Shown here one piece after another: positions 1 through 12,489 of a stretch of 64,000 nt of DNA. Where the stretch lies: positions 155,416-219,415 of the forward strand of contig CAZIUK010000002.1 of NCBI GenBank assembly GCA_964542785.1. Reading direction: 5' to 3'. The notes beneath the pieces are model-generated. The model searched no databases and was not told the DNA's origin. It saw only the letters and a program-made list of their open reading frames with translations. The first letter of the stretch is position 1. Every line of letters begins with the position of its first letter. Origin of the DNA: an uncultured Planctomycetales bacterium (GTDB lineage: Bacteria; Omnitrophota; Gorgyraeia; Gygaellales; Profunditerraquicolaceae). Made by a program: the position numbers and the translations under genes.

Positions 1-1259
1 TCCGCATCAGTAATTTTATCTTGTCCGTCCGAGCCAAAACCAAAACGGGATATCTCCATAGAGCGGATGCCTTTTTGAAATGCCTCTTTAAAATTCCTTC
101 CAATGGACATCGCCTCTCCCACAGCCTTCATTGAAGTATTCAAGAGGCGCTGGGCGTAGGGGAATTTTTCAAAGGTAAAACGGCACATCTTAAAAACGCA
201 ATAATCCAGCGTAGGCTCAAAAAACGCAGAAGTCTTGCCTGTAATCTGGTTTGTCACTTCAGGCAACGTATAACCAACAGCAAGTTTCGTAGCAACACGC
301 GCAATAGGAAATCCGGTCGCCTTAGAGGCTAAGGCAGAAGAACGCGAAAGCCTTGGATTAACCTCAATAACTACAATTCTGCCATCCTTAGGATTTTGGC
401 CAAACTGTATATTCGCACCCCCCCCGGTTATCCCAATGCGGCGGATAATCCTCTTAGAAAGATTAACAAAGTTTTTGTATTCTTCTGCGGTTAATGTCTG
501 GGCCGGGGCAACAACAATGCTATCTCCCGTATGCACCCCCATAGGATCAAAGTTCTCCATAGAGGTAACGATGATTACATTATCAGCACAATCACGTAAT
601 ATTTCAAATTCAATCTCCTTCCATCCTAAAACAGACTCCTCGATCAAAACCTGACGGACCGGACTTGACTCTAAACTCTTTGATAAGGATCTTTTTAGCT
701 CTTCATGATTATAAGCGACAGACCCACCACTGCCCCCTAATGTATAGGCAGGCCTTAATATAAGAGGAAACCCTATGGCGCGACCCACTCTCATCCCTTC
801 AGCCAATGAAGTAACTATGCTACTTTTAGGAAGGCCAACCCCTATCCCCTGCATCGCTCTTTTAAAAATCCCCCTATCCTCAGCGCAAGATATGGAACTT
901 ATTGAAGCTCCGATAGACTCAACCCCGTATTTCTTTAAAACCCCTTTTTTCATAAGAAAGAAGGCTAGGTTAAGCCCTGTCTGTCCTCCTAGTGTTGGCA
1001 AAATAGCATCTGGACGTTCTTTAGCAATAACCTTAGTTAACATCTCAACAGTCAGAGGTTCAATATAAGTAACATCCGCCATGCCCGGATCAGTCATTAT
1101 TGTCGCTGGGTTAGAATTTATAAGTATAGTAAAATAACCCTCCTCTTTTAAGGCCTTGCACGCCTGAGAGCCTGAGTAATCAAACTCACAAGCTTGGCCA
1201 ATGACAATGGGCCCGGAACCAATTATTAGAATCTTTTTAATATCTCTTCTACGGGGCAC
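1..1259 (-). CDS. carB: Carbamoyl-phosphate synthase large subunit, N-terminal part (gene continues beyond window start)
   Basis: Minus-strand translation from GTG at 1257-1259 gives [42 protein letters not shown]..., the typical CarB N-terminus with ATP-grasp motifs. It lies 3 nt after the carA stop. Confidence 0.9.
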
Positions 1260-1262
1260 AGG

Positions 1263-2339
1263 CTAACTTCCTTTCAAGATACCCTTAAACCTTAGGATAT
1301 CCGCATTAACTTCATTACATCCCGGCGAATAAGGAATATATTGTACTGCTATTATTTTTAACCGTCTACTTTCAAATCTTTCTACTGTCCTATCATTTAG
1401 ATTATACCCGGTAATCTTTACCCCTCGCACCTTAAGTAAAGAAATAGGGTCTATGGCATAAGTATGGTTTTGAATAGTAATCTCTCCCTTAGAAGAAGCG
1501 GGGTTTTGCACCGGATAATTCATCCCCCTATGCCCTATTTTCAACCTATGAAGCTTAGCTGCCAAACCTAAAGCCAAAACTAAACTCCCAGAAGATATTC
1601 CTAAAATAGGCATCCTTCCTAGTAAAGGTTTGATATTTTCAGCAACCTTCTCCAATTCAATAATATTCTCAGGGCCTCCGGCAATAACTAAGCCCTTGGG
1701 TTTTAACTTTATTACCTCTGAAACAGTAGTATTATACGGTAAGAGGATTATTGAAAACCCTAAACGCTCAATCTGCCTTATAATACTCCTTGTCGCCCCC
1801 AAATCTAATATTACTATCTTCTTGCCCCTTGACTTGTCTAACCTTTTTAACTTATTCACTGAGACCTCTTTAAGCATATCTAAAAAAGGGCTTTGACGGA
1901 ATGCGCGAATCTTCTCAACAAGATTCTTGGTATCAAAAGATTCTGTAGAAATTACCCCATATAAAGGCCCTCTTTGCCTTAAGTGTATCGCAAGCATGCG
2001 CGTATCAAGAGAATGTAATACAAATAATTTATTTTTCTGCGCAAAACTCTTCAAGCTCTCTTTAGCCTGCCAGTTTGAATATACCTGAGATTCCTCTTTA
2101 ACAACAAGCCCGGCAACCCTAACTTTATCAGACTCGCTAAACTTAGGCGCACAACCATAATTACCTATAATAGGATAAGTTAAAACTAATATTTTCCCCA
2201 AGTTTGCAGGATCAGTTATCATCTCCTGATATCCGACAACTCCGGTATTTACAATAATCTCCCCAACCCTCTCTATCCTTATCCCGTTAGATTCGCCTAT
2301 AAAGCTCTTTCCGTCCTCAAGAACCAAAATAGCCTGCAT
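1263..2339 (-). CDS. carA: Carbamoyl-phosphate synthase small subunit (glutamine amidotransferase)
   Basis: The 358-aa ORF has the CarA N-domain and class-I GATase motifs (GISSGSLVLALG, HRG). It is followed directly by carB. Confidence 0.92.
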   Translation of the reverse strand: MQAILVLEDGKSFIGESNGIRIERVGEIIVNTGVVGYQEMITDPANLGKILVLTYPIIGNYGCAPKFSESDKVRVAGLVVKEESQVYSNWQAKESLKSFAQKNKLFVLHSLDTRMLAIHLRQRGPLYGVISTESFDTKNLVEKIRAFRQSPFLDMLKEVSVNKLKRLDKSRGKKIVILDLGATRSIIRQIERLGFSIILLPYNTTVSEVIKLKPKGLVIAGGPENIIELEKVAENIKPLLGRMPILGISSGSLVLALGLAAKLHRLKIGHRGMNYPVQNPASSKGEITIQNHTYAIDPISLLKVRGVKITGYNLNDRTVERFESRRLKIIAVQYIPYSPGCNEVNADILRFKGILKGS

Positions 2340-2809
2340 TACTCATCCTCCAAAACTACTTTAGATAGAATATCTTTGACTATCTTCACTACCTTATCAA
2401 TCTCATCTACCCGGATAACTCCAGATATATTCCAATACTTAAACCCTATTACCGGAATATTAAACTGCAGACAATAGGCTATCTCTGATAAAGTTCCTGC
2501 CCTTCCCGGAAAAGCAACAACAACATCTGCACTCTTAACTACTAAAACATTTCTTGCTAATCCCATACCACTAGGAATAACAATATCTACATACTTATTT
2601 GCAGCAGATTTATTATAACCCGGAATAATACCTATTGTAACCCCGCCTCCTTGCCTAAAGCCCTTACAAGCATGGTTCATTACCCCACTAAGCCCTCCAC
2701 ATACAAGATAATCTCCCACTTTAGCAAGTTTAACACCTAATTTATAGGCTAAATCCTCCACTTTATTACTACATATATGACCGCCTATCACCCCTATAAT
2801 TTTTTTCAT
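2339..2809 (-). CDS. TIGR00725/LOG-family Rossmann-fold protein (putative nucleotide N-glycosidase-like)
   Basis: The 156-aa ORF has a Gly-rich VCGGLSGVM stretch and a PGRAGTLSEI motif (LOG PGGxGTxxE-like). It overlaps the carA start by 1 nt. Confidence 0.6.
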   Translation of the reverse strand: MKKIIGVIGGHICSNKVEDLAYKLGVKLAKVGDYLVCGGLSGVMNHACKGFRQGGGVTIGIIPGYNKSAANKYVDIVIPSGMGLARNVLVVKSADVVVAFPGRAGTLSEIAYCLQFNIPVIGFKYWNISGVIRVDEIDKVVKIVKDILSKVVLEDE

Positions 2810-2861
2810 TATATCTTTCTGTTTATAACCTCAACATAGGCATATTACAGTATATACTAAT

Positions 2862-2933
2862 TGCGCCTGGACAGAATCGAACTGTCACATTTAGCTCCGG
2901 AGGCTAACGCCCTATCCATTAGGCTACAGGCGC
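2862..2933 (-). tRNA. tRNA-Arg (anticodon CCG)
   Basis: The reverse complement folds as a 72-nt cloverleaf: acceptor GCGCCTG/CAGGCGC, anticodon stem TTAGC/GCTAA with loop CTCCGGA, T-arm GACAG-TTCGATT-CTGTC. No CCA is encoded. Confidence 0.85.
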
Positions 2934-2978
2934 ATTAATAAGCTGCCTGCTATCTAAAAATAAAACTAGAACTCCCTC

Positions 2979-4211
2979 TTAAAACAGCCTTAACTGCTCT
3001 TCCCCTCTTGTCTCTTTATCTTCAAATATAGAAATCTTTCCGTATTCTCCATCAAAACCAGCCTTTATATCTACCTTACCTTCCCGAACTCTTAAAATAC
3101 CTTCGGCTATTCTTACAGCTGTCCCTTTTAACAACTCTTCCTTTGGCACCCGCGTTAATATCTCAAATTCCGTGCCAAATTTAGCAATCATGCTACGGTA
3201 ATCACGCCCCACGGCAACACTCGCCTTACCAATACCTTTAGCATCAGCAATTATCTCATCTAAAGGAATTAAATTTATAAACGGTATGGCGTCAACGGGC
3301 TTAAAACCATCCGGCCTATCCGCTAAAGACTCTACCCTATTTAAAACTCCTACGGTAACCTGCTTCCCACATTTAGGACATTTACCACTATATTTTTTAG
3401 TCTCCTGCGGAGACCACCTTATCCCACAAAGCCTATGTCCGTCAAAATGATACTTTCCTTCTTCCGGGAAAAACTCTATCGTATAAAGAAACTTATCCTT
3501 ATCCTTTGTTTTTAGCACTTGCCGAATCTCATTATAATCGAGCGCGCAATTAAAAACATTCGCCTCCCTTCCTATCTTCTGCGGAGAATGAGAATCGCTA
3601 TTTGAAATCAGAGTAAATTTATCTAAAGCGCTTAGTCTCCAATTCATCGCCGGATCCGAAGAAAGTCCTGTTTCAAGCGCAAATATCTTTGGGGTTTGTT
3701 TCTCAAAACAATCTTCTATCCTATCAAATCCAGACATAGAGCCAAATAAAGAAAACCAGGGAGTCCAGATGTGCCCGGGGATAATCATACAATTCTCATC
3801 TATATCAAAAACAATACGAGCAAGTTCTGCGGCATCAAGCCCTAAAATCGGTCTTCCATCCGAGGATAAATTGCCAATTCTACCTAAAATATCATTTATC
3901 TGGTCTACAATCTTAAATGAAGGGGCAAATATTAAGTTGTGTATCCTATAAGTCTTGCCTTTCTTTGAGTAGATACTGCTGACTTCCGCAGTTAATATAA
4001 AACTTACTCCATTGTATGCATAAAGCCCATTACCACAATCCTCTAAGTTCGCCTTAAGCTCCTCAAGCCATAAATGATGGGTAAAATCTCCTGTTCCCAT
4101 AAGGGCTATGCCTTTAAACTTTGCCCATTCTGCTAAATTCTTAATATCCATATTTCGGCTCGTAGCCCGGGAATACTTTGAGTGAATATGAAAGTCGGCT
4201 ATGAATTCCAC
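2979..4211 (-). CDS. EndoQ-like PHP-domain endonuclease (TIGR00375 family) with C-terminal Zn ribbon
   Basis: The 410-aa ORF starts MEFIADFHIHSKYSRATS (PHP His motif) and has a CPKCGKQ...C zinc ribbon. It overlaps the pyrC stop by 13 nt. Confidence 0.6.
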   Translation of the reverse strand: MEFIADFHIHSKYSRATSRNMDIKNLAEWAKFKGIALMGTGDFTHHLWLEELKANLEDCGNGLYAYNGVSFILTAEVSSIYSKKGKTYRIHNLIFAPSFKIVDQINDILGRIGNLSSDGRPILGLDAAELARIVFDIDENCMIIPGHIWTPWFSLFGSMSGFDRIEDCFEKQTPKIFALETGLSSDPAMNWRLSALDKFTLISNSDSHSPQKIGREANVFNCALDYNEIRQVLKTKDKDKFLYTIEFFPEEGKYHFDGHRLCGIRWSPQETKKYSGKCPKCGKQVTVGVLNRVESLADRPDGFKPVDAIPFINLIPLDEIIADAKGIGKASVAVGRDYRSMIAKFGTEFEILTRVPKEELLKGTAVRIAEGILRVREGKVDIKAGFDGEYGKISIFEDKETRGEEQLRLF

Positions 4212-5476
4212 TTATGCACCTTACCTAAACAAATAGTATATTCTACGCAACCTTTAAGTGAGCCGCCTATAAACGGAGAATTCTTAGATTTAGACAAAAA
4301 ATACTCTTTAGTAATCCTGCGTTCTTTAATAGGGTCAATTATGGCGATGTCCGCATCAGCGCCCACAGAAAGACTCCCTTTATTTATACCCAAGATGCGT
4401 GCAGGATTTAATGACATTCTTTTAACTAAATCAGCCCATCCTAAAATACCCTTACCTACTAACTCTGTTACGGCGGCTAAGAACGCAGTCTCTAAACCAA
4501 TCACTCCGAATTCTGCACGCTCAAACTCTATATCTTTTTCATTTTCAGTATGAGGCGCATGGTCTGAGGCAATCACGTCAATTATCCCGGAAGATATAGC
4601 GTCCTTAAGCGCCTGAGAATCTGCCGCGCTTCTTAATGGCGGATTCATTTTAAAATTAGTATCATAAGTTAATACCGCTTCCTCTGTCAGACTAAAATAA
4701 TGAGGACAGGTCTCTGCCGTAACTCTTATGCCTTCTTGCTTTGCCTTAAATACCGCATCAACCGATTCAAGGCAACTTAGATGCGCTATATGAACCTTTG
4801 CCTTTGCCTCTTTAGCTAATTCAATATCCCGCAAGACCCTTTTATACTCGGATTCTTTGGATATACCCCTTAGGCCTAACCGGGTAGAGGTAAAACCCAA
4901 ATTAACCACCCCGGCACAAGAAGCAGACTTATCTTCAGAGTGACAAATAACAAGTACCCCTTCTTTAACTGCTTCTTTGAAAGCCGCGAGCATAAGACTA
5001 TCCGAATCAACGGATGCTCCATCATCAGAAATTGCAATAGCACCTTCTCTTTTCAGGGCTTCTATATCTACAAGGTTTTTACCTGCCCTCTCTTTTGTGA
5101 TTGTTCCACAAATAAAAACATTTGCCTGAGCGTCTGCGCTTATTCTATCTTTTAAAATCTTAATATTATCAACGGAGTCCATAGCAGGAGTAGTATTAGG
5201 CATGGCTAAGACACTAGTTACACCTCCAGCAAGCGCGGCTATTGTGCCCGAGTAAATGGTCTCTTTATCCTCCCTGCCTGGCTCTCTTAAATGCACGTGC
5301 ATATCTACCAAACCGGGAATTACTATCTTCCCGCTCGCCTCAATTATTTCAACTGCCACATCCTTAATGCTAGATGAAACCTTAATAATCTTACTATCCT
5401 CGATTAAAAGATCGAGAACGCTATCTATATTATTGTACGGGTCAACAACTCTACCGCCTCTAATCAATATCGCCAT
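4199..5476 (-). CDS. pyrC: Dihydroorotase
   Basis: The 425-aa ORF has DMHVHLREPG and the SDHAPH metal-binding motifs. Confidence 0.9.
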   Translation of the reverse strand: MAILIRGGRVVDPYNNIDSVLDLLIEDSKIIKVSSSIKDVAVEIIEASGKIVIPGLVDMHVHLREPGREDKETIYSGTIAALAGGVTSVLAMPNTTPAMDSVDNIKILKDRISADAQANVFICGTITKERAGKNLVDIEALKREGAIAISDDGASVDSDSLMLAAFKEAVKEGVLVICHSEDKSASCAGVVNLGFTSTRLGLRGISKESEYKRVLRDIELAKEAKAKVHIAHLSCLESVDAVFKAKQEGIRVTAETCPHYFSLTEEAVLTYDTNFKMNPPLRSAADSQALKDAISSGIIDVIASDHAPHTENEKDIEFERAEFGVIGLETAFLAAVTELVGKGILGWADLVKRMSLNPARILGINKGSLSVGADADIAIIDPIKERRITKEYFLSKSKNSPFIGGSLKGCVEYTICLGKVHKWNS

Positions 5477-6407
5477 TTTTTATTCTTTCGTTAGCCTGCG
5501 AGACTAAATACAAAACTGCCATGCGCACGGCTATCCCATTAATAACCTGTTCTAAAATCACAGAGTTTTCTCCATCCGCAACTTGGCTTGATATCTCTAT
5601 CCCGCGGTTAATCGGCCCGGGGTGCATAACAACTATTCCCCTTTTTGCCCTCTTTATCCTCTCTTCGGTAATCCCAAAATTCTTAAAGTATTCTAACTGC
5701 TCAGGAAAAGCTGCTCCTCCATCCCTCTCAAACTGCATCCGTAAAACATTAACAGCATCAGCATCTTTTAAAGCCTCCTCTATATTGTCGGTAACTTCAA
5801 CACCAAACCCTTCAACACCTGCAGGGACAAGCATTTTCGGAGCACAAAAAGTAACCTTAGCCCCCAACTTAACTAAACCCCATGCATTTGAACGGGCTAC
5901 ACGAGAATGGGCAATATCTCCTACTATAGTTACTTTTAACCCCTGCAACCTCCCTAGCGTTTCCTTTAAGGTAAAAATATCCAATAAGGCTTGCGTAGGA
6001 TGCTCATGCCAACCATCCCCAGCATTTACTACACTTATATTAAGATGCCGGGCAAGTATAGCCGCTGCCCCGGATGCATTGTGACGTACAACAACAATAT
6101 CCGCCTTAAGGGCTTCAATATTACGCCCGGTATCAATTAAGGTCTCCCCTTTTTTAACACTTGAGGTCTCGGTAGCTATATTAATCACATCTGCCGATAA
6201 CCTCTTTGCCGCTACCTCAAATGATACGCGGGTACGCGTAGATGGCTCATAAAATAAGTTAACTACGGTCTTGCCGCGCAAAGCAGGAACTTTTTTTATC
6301 TCTCGGGTAGAAACCTCTTTAAAAGATTCAGCAGTAGATAAAATGAGCTCAATCTCTTCTTTACTTAAATATTCCAGCCCTAATAAATCTTTTTTAACCC
6401 AACTCAT
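5460..6407 (-). CDS. pyrB: Aspartate carbamoyltransferase catalytic subunit
   Basis: The 315-aa ORF has the STRTRVSFE and HPTQAL motifs. Confidence 0.93.
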
Positions 6408-6940
6408 TCTTCTAAAATTACAACTTCTTCTTCCCCATCCGCTTCCAATAACCGAACCTGGATTGTTTCATGCTTTGCAGTAGGGATATTCTTACCTACA
6501 TAATCGGCCCTTATAGGCAACTCCCGATGACCGCGGTCAATTAGAACTGCTAACTGTATTGACTCAGGTCTGCCAAAATCAGTTAAGGCGTCTAATGCTG
6601 CACGTATAGTCCTACCGGTATATAAGACATCATCAACAAGGACGAGTAATTTATTGTTAATATCAAAACCTATCTCTGTCTTGCGCACAATAGGCTGCCC
6701 AGAGGCTAGCGCAAGATCATCGCGATAAAGGGTAATATCTAAGACCCCAAATAATACATCGCCTCCTTCAATTTTTTTAATCTGCTCTGCCAAGCGCCTA
6801 GCTAAAAAAACTCCGCGATTCCTTATCCCTATAAGGCATAGATTCTGCGTCCCTTTATTCTTCTCAACTATCTCATGGGCAATGCGCATTAAAGCACGGC
6901 TTATAGCCTCTTTGTCTAATATCCTAGCCTTCTCTTTCAT
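6404..6940 (-). CDS. pyrR: Bifunctional pyrimidine operon regulatory protein / uracil phosphoribosyltransferase PyrR
   Basis: The 178-aa ORF starts [30 protein letters not shown] and has the PRPP-binding [12 protein letters not shown] motif. Confidence 0.9.
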
Positions 6941-6942
6941 CT

Positions 6943-6982
6943 TTCAAAATAAAAAAAATACCCTAGGCCTTTATGCCTAGGG
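6943..6982 (-). terminator. Rho-independent terminator / attenuator hairpin immediately upstream of pyrR
   Basis: A perfect 8-bp stem CCCTAGGC/GCCTAGGG with a 6-nt loop at 6961-6982 is followed on the minus strand by TATTTTTTTTATTTTG. It also ends the rsmI transcript. Confidence 0.6.
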
Positions 6983-7010
6983 TATCTAATATGCAGGTTA
7001 TAAACTCCAT

Positions 7011-7060
7011 TACTCTCTCCGCCTTGCCTGCCTCTCCGGGCAAGCCTTAAAGGTCTTTTT
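7011..7060 (-). promoter_or_regulatory. Putative PyrR-binding anti-antiterminator RNA element
   Basis: The minus-strand RNA reads GGCUUGCCCGGAGAGGCAGGCAAGGCGGAGAGAGU, which contains CCGGAGAGGC resembling the PyrR binding-loop consensus (CCAGAGAGGC) inside a stem. Confidence 0.4.
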
Positions 7061-7133
7061 AATTTAAGGTAAGTATACCACGATCAAATCCTTTGTCAAG
7101 GCTAAAAATTAAAATGTCCAAATAATAATGCCC

Positions 7134-7787
7134 TTATAAGACAACTACAAATTCACCGCGAGGCTTTTCTTTAAGAAACTTCGTTAAAATCTCTTGCGGC
7201 ACACCACGGATAACTTCTTCAAATCTTTTAGTCAACTCCCGCGCTACGACTATATTTCTCTGAGGAGATGCTTCTGTAAGGGCTTTTAATGTAAATAGAA
7301 TCCTATGGGAAGACTCATAAAAAACTACCGTAGAGCGTACTTTAACCAAGTCTTTTAATTTATTTTCCCGGGCAATTTTTTTATTCGGCAAAAACCCCGC
7401 AAAATAAAATTCATGAGTCGGCTTTCCAGATAATACAAGGGCATTAATAAAAGCGCTAGCACCCGGTATAAACGTAAAGGAAATATTGTTTTTTACAGCT
7501 AAATTGATTAAATTATACCCCGGGTCAAGTATTCCTGGAGTCCCTGCGTCAGAGACAAGCGCAACATCCTTACCTCTCTTAAGAAAAGAGATTAAATACT
7601 CTCCCTTAATAACCCTATTATGCTGAAAAAAACTAGTAGTAGGTTTATCAATATTATATTCTCTGAGCAAAATTTTTGTATGGCGGGTATCTTCACATGC
7701 AATAAGGTCAACTGATTTTAAAACCTCTATTGCTCGAAGGGTAATGTCTTTTAAGTTTCCTATCGGCGTTGCTACTATATACAACAT
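7134..7787 (-). CDS. rsmI: 16S rRNA (cytidine1402-2'-O)-methyltransferase
   Basis: The 217-aa ORF is tetrapyrrole-methylase-like, with LYIVATPIGNLKDIT, ACEDTRHT and GTPGISDPG-like motifs. Confidence 0.85.
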   Translation of the reverse strand: MLYIVATPIGNLKDITLRAIEVLKSVDLIACEDTRHTKILLREYNIDKPTTSFFQHNRVIKGEYLISFLKRGKDVALVSDAGTPGILDPGYNLINLAVKNNISFTFIPGASAFINALVLSGKPTHEFYFAGFLPNKKIARENKLKDLVKVRSTVVFYESSHRILFTLKALTEASPQRNIVVARELTKRFEEVIRGVPQEILTKFLKEKPRGEFVVVL

Positions 7788-7793
7788 ATTAGG

Positions 7794-8978
7794 TTATTCA
7801 ACAGTAACCGCTTTAGTAAGGTTACGTGGTTGGTCAACATTATAACCTCTTTTGGCTGCGATATGATAAGCTAATAGTTGCAAGGGTATTACTACTAAAA
7901 GGGGAGAGAAGAATTCATTGATTCTTGGTAGAACAATTCTCTCGCAAGTTAACCTTTCTACTAAGCTATCTCCTTTACTAACGACAGCAATAATCTTCCC
8001 CTTGCGCAAGCGAATCTCCCGAATACTAGAAACCATCTTCTCGTAGACTTTTGATTGCGGGGCAATACAAACTGCTACACAATGTTCATCTATCAAAGCA
8101 ACCGGTCCATGCTTTAACTCTCCGCCTGCATATCCTTCTGCCGGTATATAAGAAACCTCCTTCAATTTTAATGCCCCTTCCAAAGCAGAGGGATAATTAA
8201 TATTGCGCCCTAAATAAAGAAAAACCCCAAAGTTAGAATACCTACGGGCAATAGTAGCTATCTTCTTTTGATCTTTTAAAATATCTTCTATGCATTTGGG
8301 CGCCTTGCACAACTCTTTTGTCAACTTTTTAACCTTGCCAGATGGTATAATTTTTCTTACCTTCGCTAAATACAAGGCGAAAAGATACAACGCAGCAAGC
8401 TGGGTAGTATAAGTCTTTGTGGCGGCTATGCCTACTTCAAGTCCAGCATTCGTATGGATAGTTCCGTCGGAATTAAGGGTTAACGCAGAACCTAACACAT
8501 TACAAATAGTAAGCACCCTTGCACCTCTTAGCCTTGCCAAACGTACTCCGGATAAAGTATCCGCGGTCTCCCCTGACTGGCTTATTGCAATAACCAAAGT
8601 ATTAGGACCGATCAACGGATCACGATAATGAAATTCGCTTGAGACCTCTACATTCACAGGAATGCGGCATAAAGATTCTATAATATACTTGCCTACTAAC
8701 CCAGCATGATAGGATGTCCCACAGGCTATAATAAAAATGTCTTTTACTCTACCTAAGACTTCTTTTGGAATTTCTCCTTCTTGAAATTCTATCTTTTGGG
8801 TTTTTTTATTTATCCTGCTACTTAAAAAATTTTCTAAGGTTTTTGACTGCTCATTAATCTCTTTTAACATAAAATGAGCAAAGTCATTTTCTTGGGCCTG
8901 CGGTATATTCTTGTGGATACGATTATTTTTTTTACCTACCTGGCGGGTTGCATAATCCATAACTTTTGAGTGCTTCAT
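7794..8978 (-). CDS. SIS-domain sugar-phosphate isomerase homologous to the GlmS C-terminal half (no glutaminase domain)
   Basis: The ORF runs to 9071. I place the start at M32 (MKHSKV, 8976-8978), which has an AAGAGAGAGG Shine-Dalgarno upstream. It contains HFMLKEINEQ, two SIS motifs and the GlmS-like C-terminal tail KAVTVE. There is no Cys2 and no Ntn glutaminase domain. Confidence 0.6.
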   Translation of the reverse strand: MKHSKVMDYATRQVGKKNNRIHKNIPQAQENDFAHFMLKEINEQSKTLENFLSSRINKKTQKIEFQEGEIPKEVLGRVKDIFIIACGTSYHAGLVGKYIIESLCRIPVNVEVSSEFHYRDPLIGPNTLVIAISQSGETADTLSGVRLARLRGARVLTICNVLGSALTLNSDGTIHTNAGLEVGIAATKTYTTQLAALYLFALYLAKVRKIIPSGKVKKLTKELCKAPKCIEDILKDQKKIATIARRYSNFGVFLYLGRNINYPSALEGALKLKEVSYIPAEGYAGGELKHGPVALIDEHCVAVCIAPQSKVYEKMVSSIREIRLRKGKIIAVVSKGDSLVERLTCERIVLPRINEFFSPLLVVIPLQLLAYHIAAKRGYNVDQPRNLTKAVTVE

Positions 8979-9182
8979 ATAAATACCTCTCTCTTTAAGG
9001 GTTGCGCTAGTCCGTTTATATTCCCGTATTTTCCTTGAACACCGAAGGTGCTTTAGGACTTTATAAAGCAATTCCGCTTTTGTTATACCCGCGGCACCTA
9101 AGCGTTTTAACCCTATCAGAAAAAGGTATTCTGTGTTGGATTTACACTTGTATACTTAACTATTCCGCACATAAAAATAAAG

Positions 9183-9257
9183 TGACCCTGACGGGATTTG
9201 AACCCGTGCCGAGAGCTTGAAAAGCTCTTGTCCTAGACCAGGCTAGACGACAGGGTC
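9183..9257 (-). tRNA. tRNA-Glu (anticodon UUC)
   Basis: The reverse complement is GACCCTGTCGTCTAGCCTGGTCTAGGACAAGAGCTTTTCAAGCTCT...CGGGTTCAAATCCCGTCAGGGTCA. The anticodon loop TTTTCAA gives UUC. No CCA is encoded. Confidence 0.85.
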
Positions 9258-9263
9258 TAGAAT

Positions 9264-11693
9264 CTATTCCTCTTCTGCTATAACCGGGGCAATGCAAGAA
9301 ACCCGATCTTTATCCTGTAGTTTAATTAATTTCACGCCCTGGGCAGAGCGTCCGGTCTCCCTAATATCTTTAACCGCACAACGCAAAAATATGCCATTTT
9401 GAGTAATGACCATCAACTCGTCTTCATCGCTAACGGTCTTCAAATTTACCGCTTCGCCGTTTTTATCCGTAACCTTAATATTAATTATCCCCTTACCTCC
9501 ACGAGAAGTCAACCTATATTCATCTACTGTGGTACGCTTTGCAAACCCCAAAGAGGTAACCGTTAGTATCGCCGCATCTTTTTGTGGGAGAACTAAATCT
9601 ATCACTTCATCTTTTTTTGCTAAAGATACTGCCCTTACCCCCCTGGCAGTACGCCCCATATCCCTAACTTTAGTTTCGGAAAAACGTATTGCCTTGCCTT
9701 GACGGGTGCCTATTAAAAGCTCTTGCTTTCCGTCCGTCATCTCTACGCTTATTAACTCATCTCCTTTATCTAGAGTAATACCTATAATCCCTCCTTTACG
9801 CGGGTTACCATAAGCATCAAGTTTAGTCTTTTTAATTAAACCTAATTTAGTAACCATTACTAAATATTGGTCAGCAGAAAACTCTTTAACAGGAACAGTA
9901 GAGCTTATCTTAGAGCCCTGCTCCATCTGCACTAAATTAATAATAGCCTTGCCCTTAGAAGTACGGCTTGCCTGCGGAATCTCATAAACCTTAAGCCAAT
10001 GAACTTGCCCCTTATCCGTAAAAATCAAGAGGTAGTCCTTGGTAGATGCGACAAAGAGGTGCTCTATAAAATCCTCATCTTTAACCTCTGCACCGGTTAC
10101 CCCTCGCCCCCCCCGTTTCTGCCTACGGTAAGAGCTTACAGGAAGCCTTTTTATATAGCCGCTATGGCTAATAGTAACTACAACATCTTCTTCTGCTATC
10201 AAATCCTCTATTTCCAGCTCCTCCACTTCGCCAACTATATCAGTCCTACGTGCATCCCCATATCTCTCTTTAAGGTCTTTCAACTCATTTTTAATAATAC
10301 CCTCTATTTTTCTCTCGGAGGCCAATATAGCCCTGCATAGCTCTATCTTCTTTAGTAGTTCGGCATATTCAGCCTCAATCTTATCCTGCTCAAGAGCGGT
10401 TAAACGCTGTAACTGCATCTCTAATATTGCCTGCGCTTGCGCCTCTGAAAGGTCAAACTCTTTCATTAAATTAACCCGCGCTACATCCACGCTTTTAGAT
10501 GTCTTAATCACCTTGATAATTCGGTCAATAAATTTAAGGGCTATCTTTAGCCCTTCTAAAATATGCGCCCTCTTCAAGGCCTTGTCCAGCTCAAATTGTG
10601 TCCTACGACGAATAATAACCTTGCGGTGCTCTATATAACAATCCAATACTTGACGCAGATTTAAAACCTTTGGTCTATTCTCTACAAGCGCAAGAGTAAT
10701 AATACCAAAGGTGGTCTCCAGCTGTGTATGTTTAAAAAGCTGGTTGAGGATAATCTGCGGCTCAGTATCCCTCTTAAGCTCAACTACTATACGCATGCCA
10801 TCCTTATCAGATTCATCACGTATATCAGAGATACCTTCTACCTTTTTCTCATCTACAAGCCCGGCGATAGCCTCAATTAATGATGATTTTTGCACCTGAT
10901 ACGGAATCTCTGTTATAATAATCAAATCTTTTCCGTTTTTTTGATGCTCAATAGTTGCCCGAGCGCGCACAGTAAGTTTACCCCGACCAGTTGTATAAGC
11001 CTCTTTAATCCCGCCTTTACCGCATATAACCCCTCCCGTAGGAAAATCCGGCCCTTTTATATAACGCATCAAGTCCTTAATCTCTGCTAAAGGATTGTCC
11101 AAAAGGTAAATAATCGCATCTGCTACTTCATTTAAATTATGCGGCGGGATATTTGTAGCCATGCCTACAGCAATACCGCTTGATCCATTTACGAGTAGAT
11201 TCGGCAGAGCTGCGGGCAAAAGTAAAGGCTCTTTTAATGAAGCATCAAAATTAGGCCCAAAATTTACTGTATCTTTATCTATATCCCCCAGAATAACATC
11301 GGCTATGGAGGCAAGACGCGCCTCAGTATAACGCATGGCTGCAGCCGCATCTCCATCCACAGAACCAAAGTTACCTTGTCCATCTACCAAGGGATAGCGT
11401 AAAGAAAAATCCTGCGCTAACCTCACCAAAGCATCGTAAACCGCTACATCCCCATGCGGATGATATTTTCCCAAAACCTCTCCAACGATACGCGCACATT
11501 TTTTATACGGCTTCGAATGCCCTAGGCTTAATTCCTGCATAGCATAGAGTATTCTTCTATGCACTGGCTTTAAACCATCACGTATATCAGGTAGAGCACG
11601 CCCAACAATTACGCTCATCGCATAATTTAAATAAGCGTCTTTAACTTCCTCTTCAATACAAACGGGAACTACTTTTCCATTACGAGCATACAT
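9264..11693 (-). CDS. gyrA: DNA gyrase subunit A
   Basis: The 809-aa ORF has the active-site Tyr region [11 protein letters not shown] and a C-terminal beta-pinwheel repeat region. Confidence 0.95.
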
Positions 11694-12489
11694 TGGTCTC
11701 TACAGCCTCTTTTATTTTTTTATACATAACAACCATTGCTACGACAATAAACGGCGTTACTATAGAATTAATAATAATATTATTAACGGCGCCGACAACC
11801 ATACTCACTTCCGTCATGTAATTATGCCTGTTAAAAATATCATTCCACACAACATAAGGAATAGACGTAAGCAGTATAGTAGCCGCAATTAAAGCATACT
11901 CTCCAACAACCGGTGTAACATAATTCTTTATAAGAACGGCACTACGCCTTAATGACTTAATAGGCCCTAAATCCTCTGCTATACAAACTACCCCTGCAAG
12001 TGCCCAACGAATCCCAAAATAAACAAAGGAAGAAATTACTATAATAACTGGGATAATCTGCACAGCAAATACAGATAAGATACTACCTCTACCAAGCATA
12101 GCATACAAAACCACTACAACCGCAAATCCAACAAAAACTATACTGCTGAAAAACAAAACAATTAATAAATTTAACGCTATATACCGCACCAAGTACTTTT
12201 TTATCCCTAATAAAATACTCTCTACGATATTTACTCCCTCTCCCTGCGCCACTTTACAAGTAGCAAATATTAATGGGACCGAAACCAATGAGCTTAATAT
12301 CATTAAAATTAGATTTAATATTTTAGACTGATCCCCTACTACTACTAAAGACAATAAGGTAAACAAAAGATATGGCACAAATAAAGCGAGATATATACCG
12401 CTTAGCTTCTTGAAATCTTTAAGGTACAACCCCCAAGCTTCTTTAAAAATCAAAACCGGATAAATCGCTTTTTTCACACAATTCGCCAT
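11680..12489 (-). CDS. Hypothetical polytopic integral membrane protein (about 6-7 TM helices)
   Basis: The 269-aa ORF is very hydrophobic. Its stop overlaps the gyrA start by 14 nt and it lies 13 nt after gyrB. I do not recognise a motif. Confidence 0.55.

Follow-up and report, generated by a model that had tools for sequence, protein, structure and literature searches.

The pyr operon of Bacillus subtilis has the order pyrR-pyrP-pyrB-pyrC-pyrAA-pyrAB-pyrK-pyrD-pyrF-pyrE and carries three PyrR attenuators. PyrR attenuation terminates or lowers transcription when the level of UMP/UTP is high. In the Escherichia coli unit thrU-tyrU-glyT-thrT-tufB, tRNA genes are co-transcribed with a protein gene. 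Here, we analyzed a 64-kb stretch of DNA (contig CAZIUK010000002.1; hereafter, the window) from a bacterium of the Omnitrophota, an uncultivated and often ultra-small-celled phylum. The names given to homologues of its proteins place the bacterium in Candidatus Omnitrophota. The interval under study covers the first (5') half of a pyrimidine operon of the Firmicutes type, within which lie a gene for a homologue of endonuclease Q (EndoQ), a tRNA-Arg(CCG) gene, and a gene for a protein of the SLOG superfamily. It is a real, conserved, and apparently undescribed variant of the PyrR-controlled pyr operon, and every one of its parts is of a known kind. The substrates of EndoQ include deoxyuridine (dU) (PMC5961232; PMC6202378).

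Organization of the pyr operon

On the minus strand of the window, a promoter and one PyrR attenuator precede pyrR-pyrB-pyrC-endoQ-tRNA-Arg(CCG)-SLOG-carA-carB. The features are given below in the order of transcription, with lengths in nucleotides (nt) or amino acids (aa).

7072..7099 (-): sigma-70-type promoter, TTGACA-16-TGgTATACT; 11/12 matches with an extended -10 (promoter scan)
6951..7057 (-): PyrR binding loop and attenuator; Rfam RF00515, 56.4 bits against a gathering score of 54
6956..6987 (-): terminator hairpin of the attenuator; 13 pairs and a U-run/T-run (terminator scan)
6404..6940 (-): pyrR, 178 aa, attenuation regulator/uracil phosphoribosyltransferase (UPRTase); NF003549, 257.8 bits against a cut-off of 138
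5460..6407 (-): pyrB, 315 aa, aspartate carbamoyltransferase; 4-nt overlap with pyrR; NF002032, 410.3 bits against a cut-off of 263
4199..5476 (-): pyrC, 425 aa, dihydroorotase; 17-nt overlap with pyrB; TIGR00857, 398.3 bits against a cut-off of 279
2979..4211 (-): endoQ, 410 aa, PHP-domain endonuclease Q homologue; GTG start, 13-nt overlap with pyrC
2861..2934 (-): tRNA-Arg(CCG); found by ARAGORN, Rfam 69.3 bits
2339..2809 (-): SLOG cluster-4/TIGR00725 gene, 156 aa; its stop overlaps the carA start by 1 nt (TAATG)
1263..2339 (-): carA, 358 aa, carbamoyl-phosphate synthase small subunit; TIGR01368, 313.8 bits against 307.35
1..1259 (-): 5' part of carB, identified by direct reading of the sequence; starts with GTG at 1259 and continues past the edge of the window

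PyrR, aspartate carbamoyltransferase, dihydroorotase, and CarA all score above the curated NCBIfam cut-offs. A first-pass annotation of this DNA had reported successive gene overlaps of 4, 17, 13, and 1 nt, and these, together with its gene coordinates, were all reproduced on the minus strand. The place that it gave endoQ, inside the pyr operon and coupled to its neighbor, was likewise borne out, the endoQ start overlapping the end of pyrC by 13 nt. The promoter and the PyrR attenuator had gone unmentioned in that annotation. An AAGGTG Shine-Dalgarno sequence lies 5 nt upstream of the endoQ GTG. The tRNA gene follows 44 nt past the endoQ stop and ends 51 nt ahead of the SLOG start.

The operon extends beyond the window. 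A second contig (L086), 99.99% identical to window positions 1..9239, reaches 4.35 kb further and holds the full 1095-aa carB, followed by fpg (mutM), pyrK, and pyrD. The fpg gene is located at 11261-12064 of L086, just past window position 1 on the window's minus strand, and overlaps carB by 8 nt on one side and pyrK by 13 nt on the other. Its product begins with PELPEVE and scores 282.7 bits against TIGR00577 (cut-off, 203.3). In a 93%-identical relative (L001), the operon goes on to pyrF, after which V-type ATPase genes begin. The composite order from the window, L086, and L001 is pyrR-pyrB-pyrC-endoQ-tRNAArg(CCG)-SLOG-carA-carB-fpg-pyrK-pyrD-pyrF, which spans about 12 kb in L001. The Firmicutes-type order pyrR-pyrB-pyrC-carA-carB-pyrK-pyrD-pyrF is thereby found on one strand, with endoQ, tRNA-Arg, SLOG, and fpg interposed.

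The first-pass annotation considered the arrangement undescribed, and we found no account of it in the searchable literature. Neither the literature searched nor the main Omnitrophota genomics paper describes EndoQ, Fpg, or TIGR00725 inside pyr operons. Recent horizontal acquisition was considered and rejected, the base composition being homogeneous across the region.

The endoQ product is a true endonuclease Q homologue

The EndoQ-like protein has a single NCBIfam match, TIGR00375, in which the alignment runs from position 2 to position 374 of the 374-position model (E = 3e-61). Proteins that are 80-93% identical to it carry the NCBI name "endonuclease Q family protein." In a phmmer search against the PDB, EndoQ of Pyrococcus furiosus (PfuEndoQ; 5zb8_A) was the best match (E = 3.6e-60), with query residues 5-398 aligned to chain residues 5-385, and the DNA complexes 7K30-33 of the same enzyme were also among the best matches. 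When an AlphaFold2 (AF2) model of the protein was searched with Foldseek, the top matches were 5zb8 (E = 3e-27; template modeling score [TM], 0.71) and 7k30, and the next family followed at an E value of approximately 1e-3.

The Zn ligands of PfuEndoQ were defined by mutagenesis as H8, H10, E76, H84, H139, and D193, plus H195 (PMC5961232). All of the PHP metal ligands are intact in the window protein and align with this set (H8, H10, E76, H91, H147, D206, and H208), and they are invariant in a cross-phylum alignment. The lesion pocket of PfuEndoQ, formed by H139, T142, E167, L168, G169, L170, N191, and D193, corresponds to H147, T150, E180, T181, G182, L183, N204, and D206. Seven of these eight residues are identical, and the sole change, from L168 to T, falls at a position that gives main-chain atoms only. 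A Zn module, H259-x2-C262...C278-x2-C281, is also present; its four ligands are invariant in the alignment, the first being His here and Cys in PfuEndoQ. On the strength of the full-length match, the ligands, the pocket, and the fold, the open reading frame (ORF) that the first-pass annotation had called EndoQ-like is a true endonuclease Q homologue. Taken together, the evidence on this protein and its homologues favors a predicted function as an endonuclease of DNA repair over one as a PHP hydrolase of metabolism.

The protein ends with QLRLF, which matches the beta-clamp-binding consensus and is predicted to be a sliding-clamp motif. QLxLF forms the C-terminal end in 115 of 120 close EndoQ homologues, and the looser form Qxx[LF]F does so in 60 of 74 standalone homologues from Omnitrophota, Patescibacteria, Thermodesulfobacteriota, WOR-3, Nitrospirota, and other groups. 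As reported previously, bacterial EndoQ homologues carry a clamp motif, noted alongside the PIP-box/PCNA interaction of the archaeal enzymes (PMC4858679).

Longer homologues were also encountered. Of the 150 best representatives of clusters at 50% identity, approximately 120 are at least 900 aa long, and the five scanned at that length all have a UvrD/PcrA helicase domain at the C-terminus. The idea that fusion to UvrD is the dominant EndoQ architecture was dropped, as only about 4 of 78 species-genome loci have it, and the claim is limited to fusions being common. UvrD/PcrA helicases are often fused or adjacent to close EndoQ homologues (proteins P0121-P0270; loci L057, L072, and L075-L077), and intein/LAGLIDADG insertions occur in homologues P0121 and P0156. 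These helicase fusions and inteins are a pointer to a DNA role for EndoQ homologues. EndoQ proteins fall into 3765 clusters when grouped at 50% identity, and a scan of one genome per species gave at least 586 stretches that encode EndoQ. EndoQ is thus far more widespread in uncultivated bacterial phyla than the "limited number of bacteria" given in the literature.

The pyrC-endoQ linkage is conserved in one clade

For a survey of EndoQ loci, the best 80 of these stretches were taken and the operon genes were mapped by tblastn. The adjacency of pyrC and endoQ was found in approximately 23 of the 25 Omnitrophota-type loci with enough flanking sequence, the exceptions being L018 and L037. Across the linked loci, EndoQ identity ranges from 55 to 93% and PyrC identity from 41 to 91%. 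A 150-aa Mut7-C gene lies between pyrC and endoQ in some loci, and one or two extra ORFs do so in L038 and L048. Three layouts were distinguished:

Layout A: pyrR-B-C-endoQ-tRNAArg-SLOG-(carA)-carB-fpg-pyrK-D-F
Layout B: pyrR-B-C-endoQ-pyrK-D-F; endoQ is flanked on either side by gaps of a few nucleotides (in several relatives, about 20 nt at most)
Layout C: pyrR-B-C-...-endoQ-carA-carB-pyrK-D-F

The position of fpg after carB is kept in all layout-A relatives. Outside the Omnitrophota, no pyr genes were found within 10 kb in any of the approximately 55 loci of other phyla that were among the best 80 of at least 586 hits. In a neighbor-joining tree, all of the pyr-linked EndoQs and that of L018 fall in one clade, and L037, although labeled Omnitrophota, falls outside it. 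Since the linked EndoQs form one clade, the pyrC-endoQ linkage arose once and was then inherited. The first-pass annotation had proposed checking related genomes for the operon, and it recurs throughout this one deep Omnitrophota clade.

Several features of the relatives are absent from the window or differ from it. The Mut7-C gene (PIN-like nuclease; PF01927, 153 bits; 150 aa) is directly upstream of endoQ in many relatives, deep branches included, and is not found in the window lineage (L004, 9511-9975; L009, 9065-9523; L016, 9549-9998; L048, 9549-10004; L018, approximately 9587-9994). The pairing of Mut7-C with endoQ may be of older date. Directly downstream of endoQ and ahead of tRNA-Arg, one or two flavodoxin-like genes that are not present in the window occur in L004 (11241-11735), L010 (10019-10504 and 10628-11113), L012 (11239-11724), L016 (11553-12059), and L018 (11190-11732). 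In L004 (12346-13962) and also in L006, L008, L009, and L010, the gene that follows SLOG encodes no more than the C-terminal half of CarB (model positions 551-1056), and no carA lies within these five loci, which points to a split or half-size carbamoyl-phosphate synthase. In L037 (4431-5407), a single case, endoQ is preceded in overlapping frames by genes for a 2-thiouracil desulfurase (PF04463, 158.6 bits) and a HIT-family protein, so that here too its neighbors belong to nucleotide metabolism.

Promoter, attenuator, and transcript

The leader upstream of pyrR, consisting of the promoter, the PyrR loop, and the terminator, is conserved in 13 of 13 aligned relatives. At the equivalent position, 8 of 10 relatives have a promoter with 11/12 matches and the TG. 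The terminator hairpin ends 11 nt ahead of the pyrR ATG and forms the 3' part of the RF00515 match. RF00515 scores 56.7 bits in L001 and falls below the gathering score in more distant relatives. The PyrR loop pattern, CCTTTAA-stem-GAGAGG-stem-AAGG, is kept in all 13 relatives with stems that differ yet stay complementary (covariation). Exactly one PyrR binding loop per operon was found in a pattern scan of 17 loci and the window. With respect to internal PyrR sites, Rfam searches of window positions 1..12000 (E-value mode) and of seven relatives (gathering threshold), together with the pattern scan of all loci, returned the leader site only.

Upstream alignment and a promoter scoring scan revealed no conserved internal promoter for endoQ or the tRNA, the best matches being 7-10/12 without positional conservation. 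A terminator scan detected no convincing minus-strand intrinsic terminator between 4211 and 1263. Independent promoters or terminators that would split endoQ from the pyr genes had been named in the first-pass annotation as evidence against its proposal; none that is conserved or convincing was found in these scans. A perfect TATAAT just ahead of the SLOG ATG was ruled out as a SLOG promoter because it overlaps the start codon. The short spacers ahead of the tRNA (44 nt in the window, 28 nt in L009) and between the tRNA and SLOG (approximately 12-15 nt in L006 and L010) leave too little room for promoters. As judged from these signals, one PyrR-gated polycistronic RNA, transcribed from one strong promoter through one UMP-sensing attenuator, is most likely. 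The tRNA-Arg is probably excised from this RNA.

It is unlikely that the cluster is instead divided into separate transcription units, with internal promoters or RNase P/Z processing at the tRNA uncoupling endoQ, SLOG-carAB-fpg, or both from PyrR. Such a division would fit the general knowledge that tRNA genes often have their own promoters, as well as the weak promoter-like matches inside pyrC and endoQ and the extra genes and 0.5-1.1-kb gaps between endoQ and the tRNA in L004, L010, L012, L016, and L018. In addition, cleavage at the tRNA would physically split the mRNA into two halves. However, the sequences ahead of the tRNA and of endoQ hold no promoter-like element that is conserved or as good as the pyrR promoter, and the gaps in the window, L009, L006, and L010 preclude promoters. 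Layout B has endoQ between pyrC and pyrK with very small gaps, and no intrinsic terminator follows endoQ.

The SLOG protein and its tRNA-Arg module

The 156-aa protein scores above the thresholds of TIGR00725 (118.1 against 106.9) and PF18306 (SLOG cluster 4; 136 bits against 26.3) but below those of the LOG models TIGR00730 (46.5 against 96.35), PF03641 (26.9 against 27), and NF058542 (29.6 against 300). The nearest solved structures are the molybdenum cofactor (Moco)-binding/carrier proteins 6Y01 (E = 1.9e-18) and 2IZ5 (E = 2.8e-16), followed by TM1055; LOG enzymes match more weakly (E = 1e-6 to 1e-7). An AF2 model with a predicted local distance difference test score (pLDDT) of 91.6 gave 6y01 (TM, 0.88; 36% identity), 2iz5 (TM, 0.87), and 1rcu (TM, 0.82) as the best folds. 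The model reaches a TM of 0.77-0.81 against LOG proteins and 0.70-0.83 against LOG, PpnN, and DprA together.

Among the orthologues, GGLxGxM, GxGLARN, and PGxxGTLSE are invariant, and these motifs read as a LOG-like ligand-site signature that is largely common to Moco carrier proteins (MCPs) too. LOG enzymes are characterized by a PGGxGTxxE motif with a catalytic Glu and by a catalytic Arg. The window protein reads PGRAGTLSE, in which the second Gly of PGGxGTxxE is replaced at a position that varies among orthologues, and E109 and R86 (in GLARN) are invariant. Of the "TIGR00725/LOG-like" label used in the first-pass annotation, the TIGR00725 part stands, but the LOG enzyme part does not. The N-glycosidase or salvage activity that had been proposed for this gene is not implied, as the protein falls outside the LOG thresholds and its nearest structures are Moco carriers. 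The model supports a Rossmannoid fold and ligand-binding character, and the protein would be a small-ligand or nucleotide-binding Rossmannoid protein rather than a demonstrated LOG hydrolase.

The genomic context of SLOG is constant. In 10 of 10 layout-A loci, tRNA-Arg(CCG) is directly upstream of SLOG, even when a flavodoxin-like gene or approximately 1 kb comes after endoQ. The gene that immediately follows SLOG is in every case carA or carB, whose start often overlaps or nearly overlaps the SLOG stop codon; layouts B and C have no SLOG. Given these constant tRNA and carA/carB neighbors, SLOG is a member of a tRNA-Arg-SLOG-carAB(-fpg) module and not of one with endoQ. This invariant tRNA-Arg-SLOG-carA/carB module offers a concrete, testable context for the uncharacterized TIGR00725 family.

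Sequence elements were also seen around the tRNA gene. In L016 (approximately 12069-12340), a 27-nt copy of the tRNA-Arg(CCG) 3' end lies approximately 190 nt downstream of the tRNA, and this att-like duplication suggests a past integration event at tRNA-Arg. A GC-rich hairpin just upstream of tRNA-Arg in L007 (approximately 7170-7250), L008 (approximately 11240-11300), and L016 (approximately 11990-12050) opens with GCGCCTGT, the same as the tRNA 5' end; it may be a repeat element, a tRNA remnant, or a processing signal. An anti-phage defense role for SLOG, EndoQ, Mut7-C, or flavodoxin was rejected, only insignificant matches having been obtained with PADLOC.

SLOG might also be a Moco (pterin) carrier-type protein or a carrier of another ligand, unconnected to pyrimidines and placed here by chance through an insertion linked to tRNA-Arg. 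The closest matches in both sequence and fold (6y01 and 2iz5) and the att-like duplication in L016 are in line with such an origin, which we nevertheless regard as doubtful. The LOG-like signature is invariant, Arg86 and Glu109 included, and no Moco genes were seen nearby. The constant place directly upstream of carA/carB suggests a link to carbamoyl-phosphate synthase.

Proposed explanation and alternatives

The overall best explanation, in which we have slightly better than even confidence, is a single PyrR-gated operon with an intact, clamp-recruited EndoQ that was inserted once, so that repair is dosed with pyrimidine supply. By homology, EndoQ would nick DNA 5' of dU, deoxyinosine (dI), or abasic sites, and the beta sliding clamp would recruit it via the C-terminal QLRLF. 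The gene would have been inserted downstream of pyrC once, in the ancestor of the Omnitrophota clade, and kept while the rest of the operon was rearranged. EndoQ synthesis, start/stop-coupled to pyrC, would be tied to read-through of the pyr operon. Base-damage repair by EndoQ, and by MutM/Fpg encoded after carB, would in this way be dosed with pyrimidine supply and hence with growth and replication demand.

Several results weigh against this explanation. The TIGR00375 score of 207.9 bits is below the curated cut-off of 326.6, which is set at the (hypothetical-)equivalog level. A score below the TIGR00375 threshold had been named in the first-pass annotation as grounds for rejecting its proposal, and the assignment is formally below that threshold, but every other test of EndoQ membership that was run places the protein in the family. 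The AF2 model of EndoQ is of moderate quality (pLDDT, 68; predicted TM, 0.71). Given the single origin, conservation alone is no proof of a functional link and the persistence of the linkage could be neutral inheritance; the neighboring rsmI-pyrR synteny is also partly conserved. The operon of relatives has taken up unrelated inserts (Mut7-C, flavodoxin, YjbQ, PEMT, and a glycosyltransferase), and since it is permissive to inserts, membership need not imply shared function. Promoter matches inside coding sequence may act as internal promoters, and several relatives have a -10-like box, TAGAAT, at 58-72 nt upstream of endoQ, although it coincides with conserved PyrC codons. Selection or inheritance may be what maintains the layout.

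The first-pass annotation had gone further and suggested a co-regulated uracil-in-DNA or salvage function. In its uracil-specific form, this would be an adaptive coupling in which EndoQ, perhaps with SLOG as a nucleotide N-glycosidase, is under PyrR because UMP synthesis shifts the dUTP/dTTP supply. Characterized EndoQ substrates do include dU, endoQ is internal to a PyrR-attenuated operon, and the linkage has been kept over deep divergence. In the unrelated locus L037, moreover, EndoQ comes after a 2-thiouracil desulfurase and a HIT protein. However, PyrR terminates transcription at abundant UMP/UTP, and EndoQ would accordingly be at its lowest level just when dUTP is likely to be most plentiful. 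Fpg/MutM, the product of the other repair gene in the operon, acts on oxidized purines and not on uracil. SLOG is outside the LOG family by curated thresholds, is closest to Moco carriers, and is missing from two of the three layouts, and the linkage, which is of single origin, is not seen in the approximately 55 loci of other phyla. For these reasons the uracil/salvage rationale is weak, and we consider the coupling improbable.

A broader possibility, to which we likewise give little credence, is a super-operon for "nucleotide supply plus DNA quality" that is itself under selection. The UMP-sensing attenuator would dose EndoQ and MutM with pyrimidine synthesis, and the tRNA-Arg/SLOG module would serve in the regulation or processing of the carbamoyl-phosphate synthase segment. 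SLOG could, for example, be a nucleotide-sensing partner of CarAB, and the tRNA could be a switch at which RNA processing cuts the message in two.

It is highly improbable that the EndoQ-like protein was recruited to a non-DNA role, such as that of a PHP phosphoesterase acting on nucleotides or RNA: PHP domains do include nucleotide and RNA phosphoesterases, RNase AM and BAD_1165 appear as weak fold matches ranked behind EndoQ, and the score is under the TIGR00375 equivalog cut-off, but the match to EndoQ is full-length, including the Zn finger and the C-terminal domain, and more than 20 orders of magnitude better in fold than that to other PHP proteins, the lesion pocket and the C-terminal clamp-binding motif are conserved, and close homologues are fused to the UvrD helicase.

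The main additions made here are the conservation throughout the clade, the presence of fpg as a second repair gene just past the edge of the window, and the invariant tRNA-Arg-SLOG-carAB module. If the genes of the favored single PyrR-gated operon are indeed co-transcribed, this would be a natural case of lesion-specific repair (EndoQ and MutM) under a nucleotide-sensing RNA attenuator, and precursor supply would be linked to genome maintenance in an uncultivated phylum. Current understanding is not overturned, the components being known and the linkage having a single evolutionary origin.

Other genes in the window

A GlmS-like protein is encoded at 7794-9071 (-) and consists of the SIS/isomerase half only (GlmS model positions 219-601). 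The 110 nt between this gene and tRNA-Glu (9182-9257) leave no room for a glutaminase domain, and a full 612-aa GlmS is found at the equivalent position in L004. This looks like a clean loss of the N-terminal GlmS domain in the species-level lineage of the window. Both gyrB and gyrA overlap a 269-aa ORF that they enclose at 11680-12489 (-); this ORF is conserved in L001 (93% identical) and gave no match in Pfam. A six-frame motif scan for UDG and dUTPase signatures returned nothing credible in the 64-kb window, the rest of the genome being outside the scope of the scan.

Comparison with known systems

The window protein shares with EndoQ of P. furiosus (PF1551; 5ZB8/7K30) and of Bacillus pumilus the full-length three-domain architecture, at 34% identity. 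The PHP Zn ligands and the lesion-pocket residues of the P. furiosus enzyme are identical, one main-chain position apart, and a Zn-binding module and a C-terminal clamp motif are likewise present. Unlike the P. furiosus enzyme, the window protein is bacterial, comes from a mesophilic uncultivated phylum, is encoded inside a pyr operon, and has a predicted activity. Its Zn finger is HxxC...CxxC, with His instead of Cys as the first ligand, and its clamp motif is the bacterial QLxLF and not a PIP box.

Compared with the B. subtilis pyr operon, the locus has the same order pyrR-B-C-carA-carB-pyrK-D-F, the PyrR protein, and an RF00515 loop/terminator leader upstream of pyrR. In contrast to the three attenuators of B. 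subtilis, one attenuator was found here, and pyrP and pyrE are lacking. The insertion of endoQ, SLOG, fpg, and a tRNA gene, with still more inserts in relatives, is a further difference.

SLOG has the Rossmannoid fold of the MCPs of Chlamydomonas (2IZ5) and Rippkaea orientalis (6Y01), with a TM of 0.85-0.88 and 31-36% identity. It shares with the MCPs and the wider SLOG superfamily (LOG, PpnN, and DprA) the glycine-rich ligand-binding loops and a PGxxGTxxE-like motif. Unlike LOGs, it falls below the TIGR00730 and PF03641 thresholds. Its gene also differs from those of MCPs and LOGs in having tRNA-Arg upstream and carA/carB downstream, a context that we did not find reported for either group.

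As in thrU-tyrU-glyT-thrT-tufB, the tRNA gene is on the same strand as the ORFs and separated from them by very short spacers, which by analogy would imply co-transcription with RNase P and 3' processing. In the E. coli case, the tRNAs are at the 5' end, whereas the tRNA described here is mid-operon, between two protein genes.

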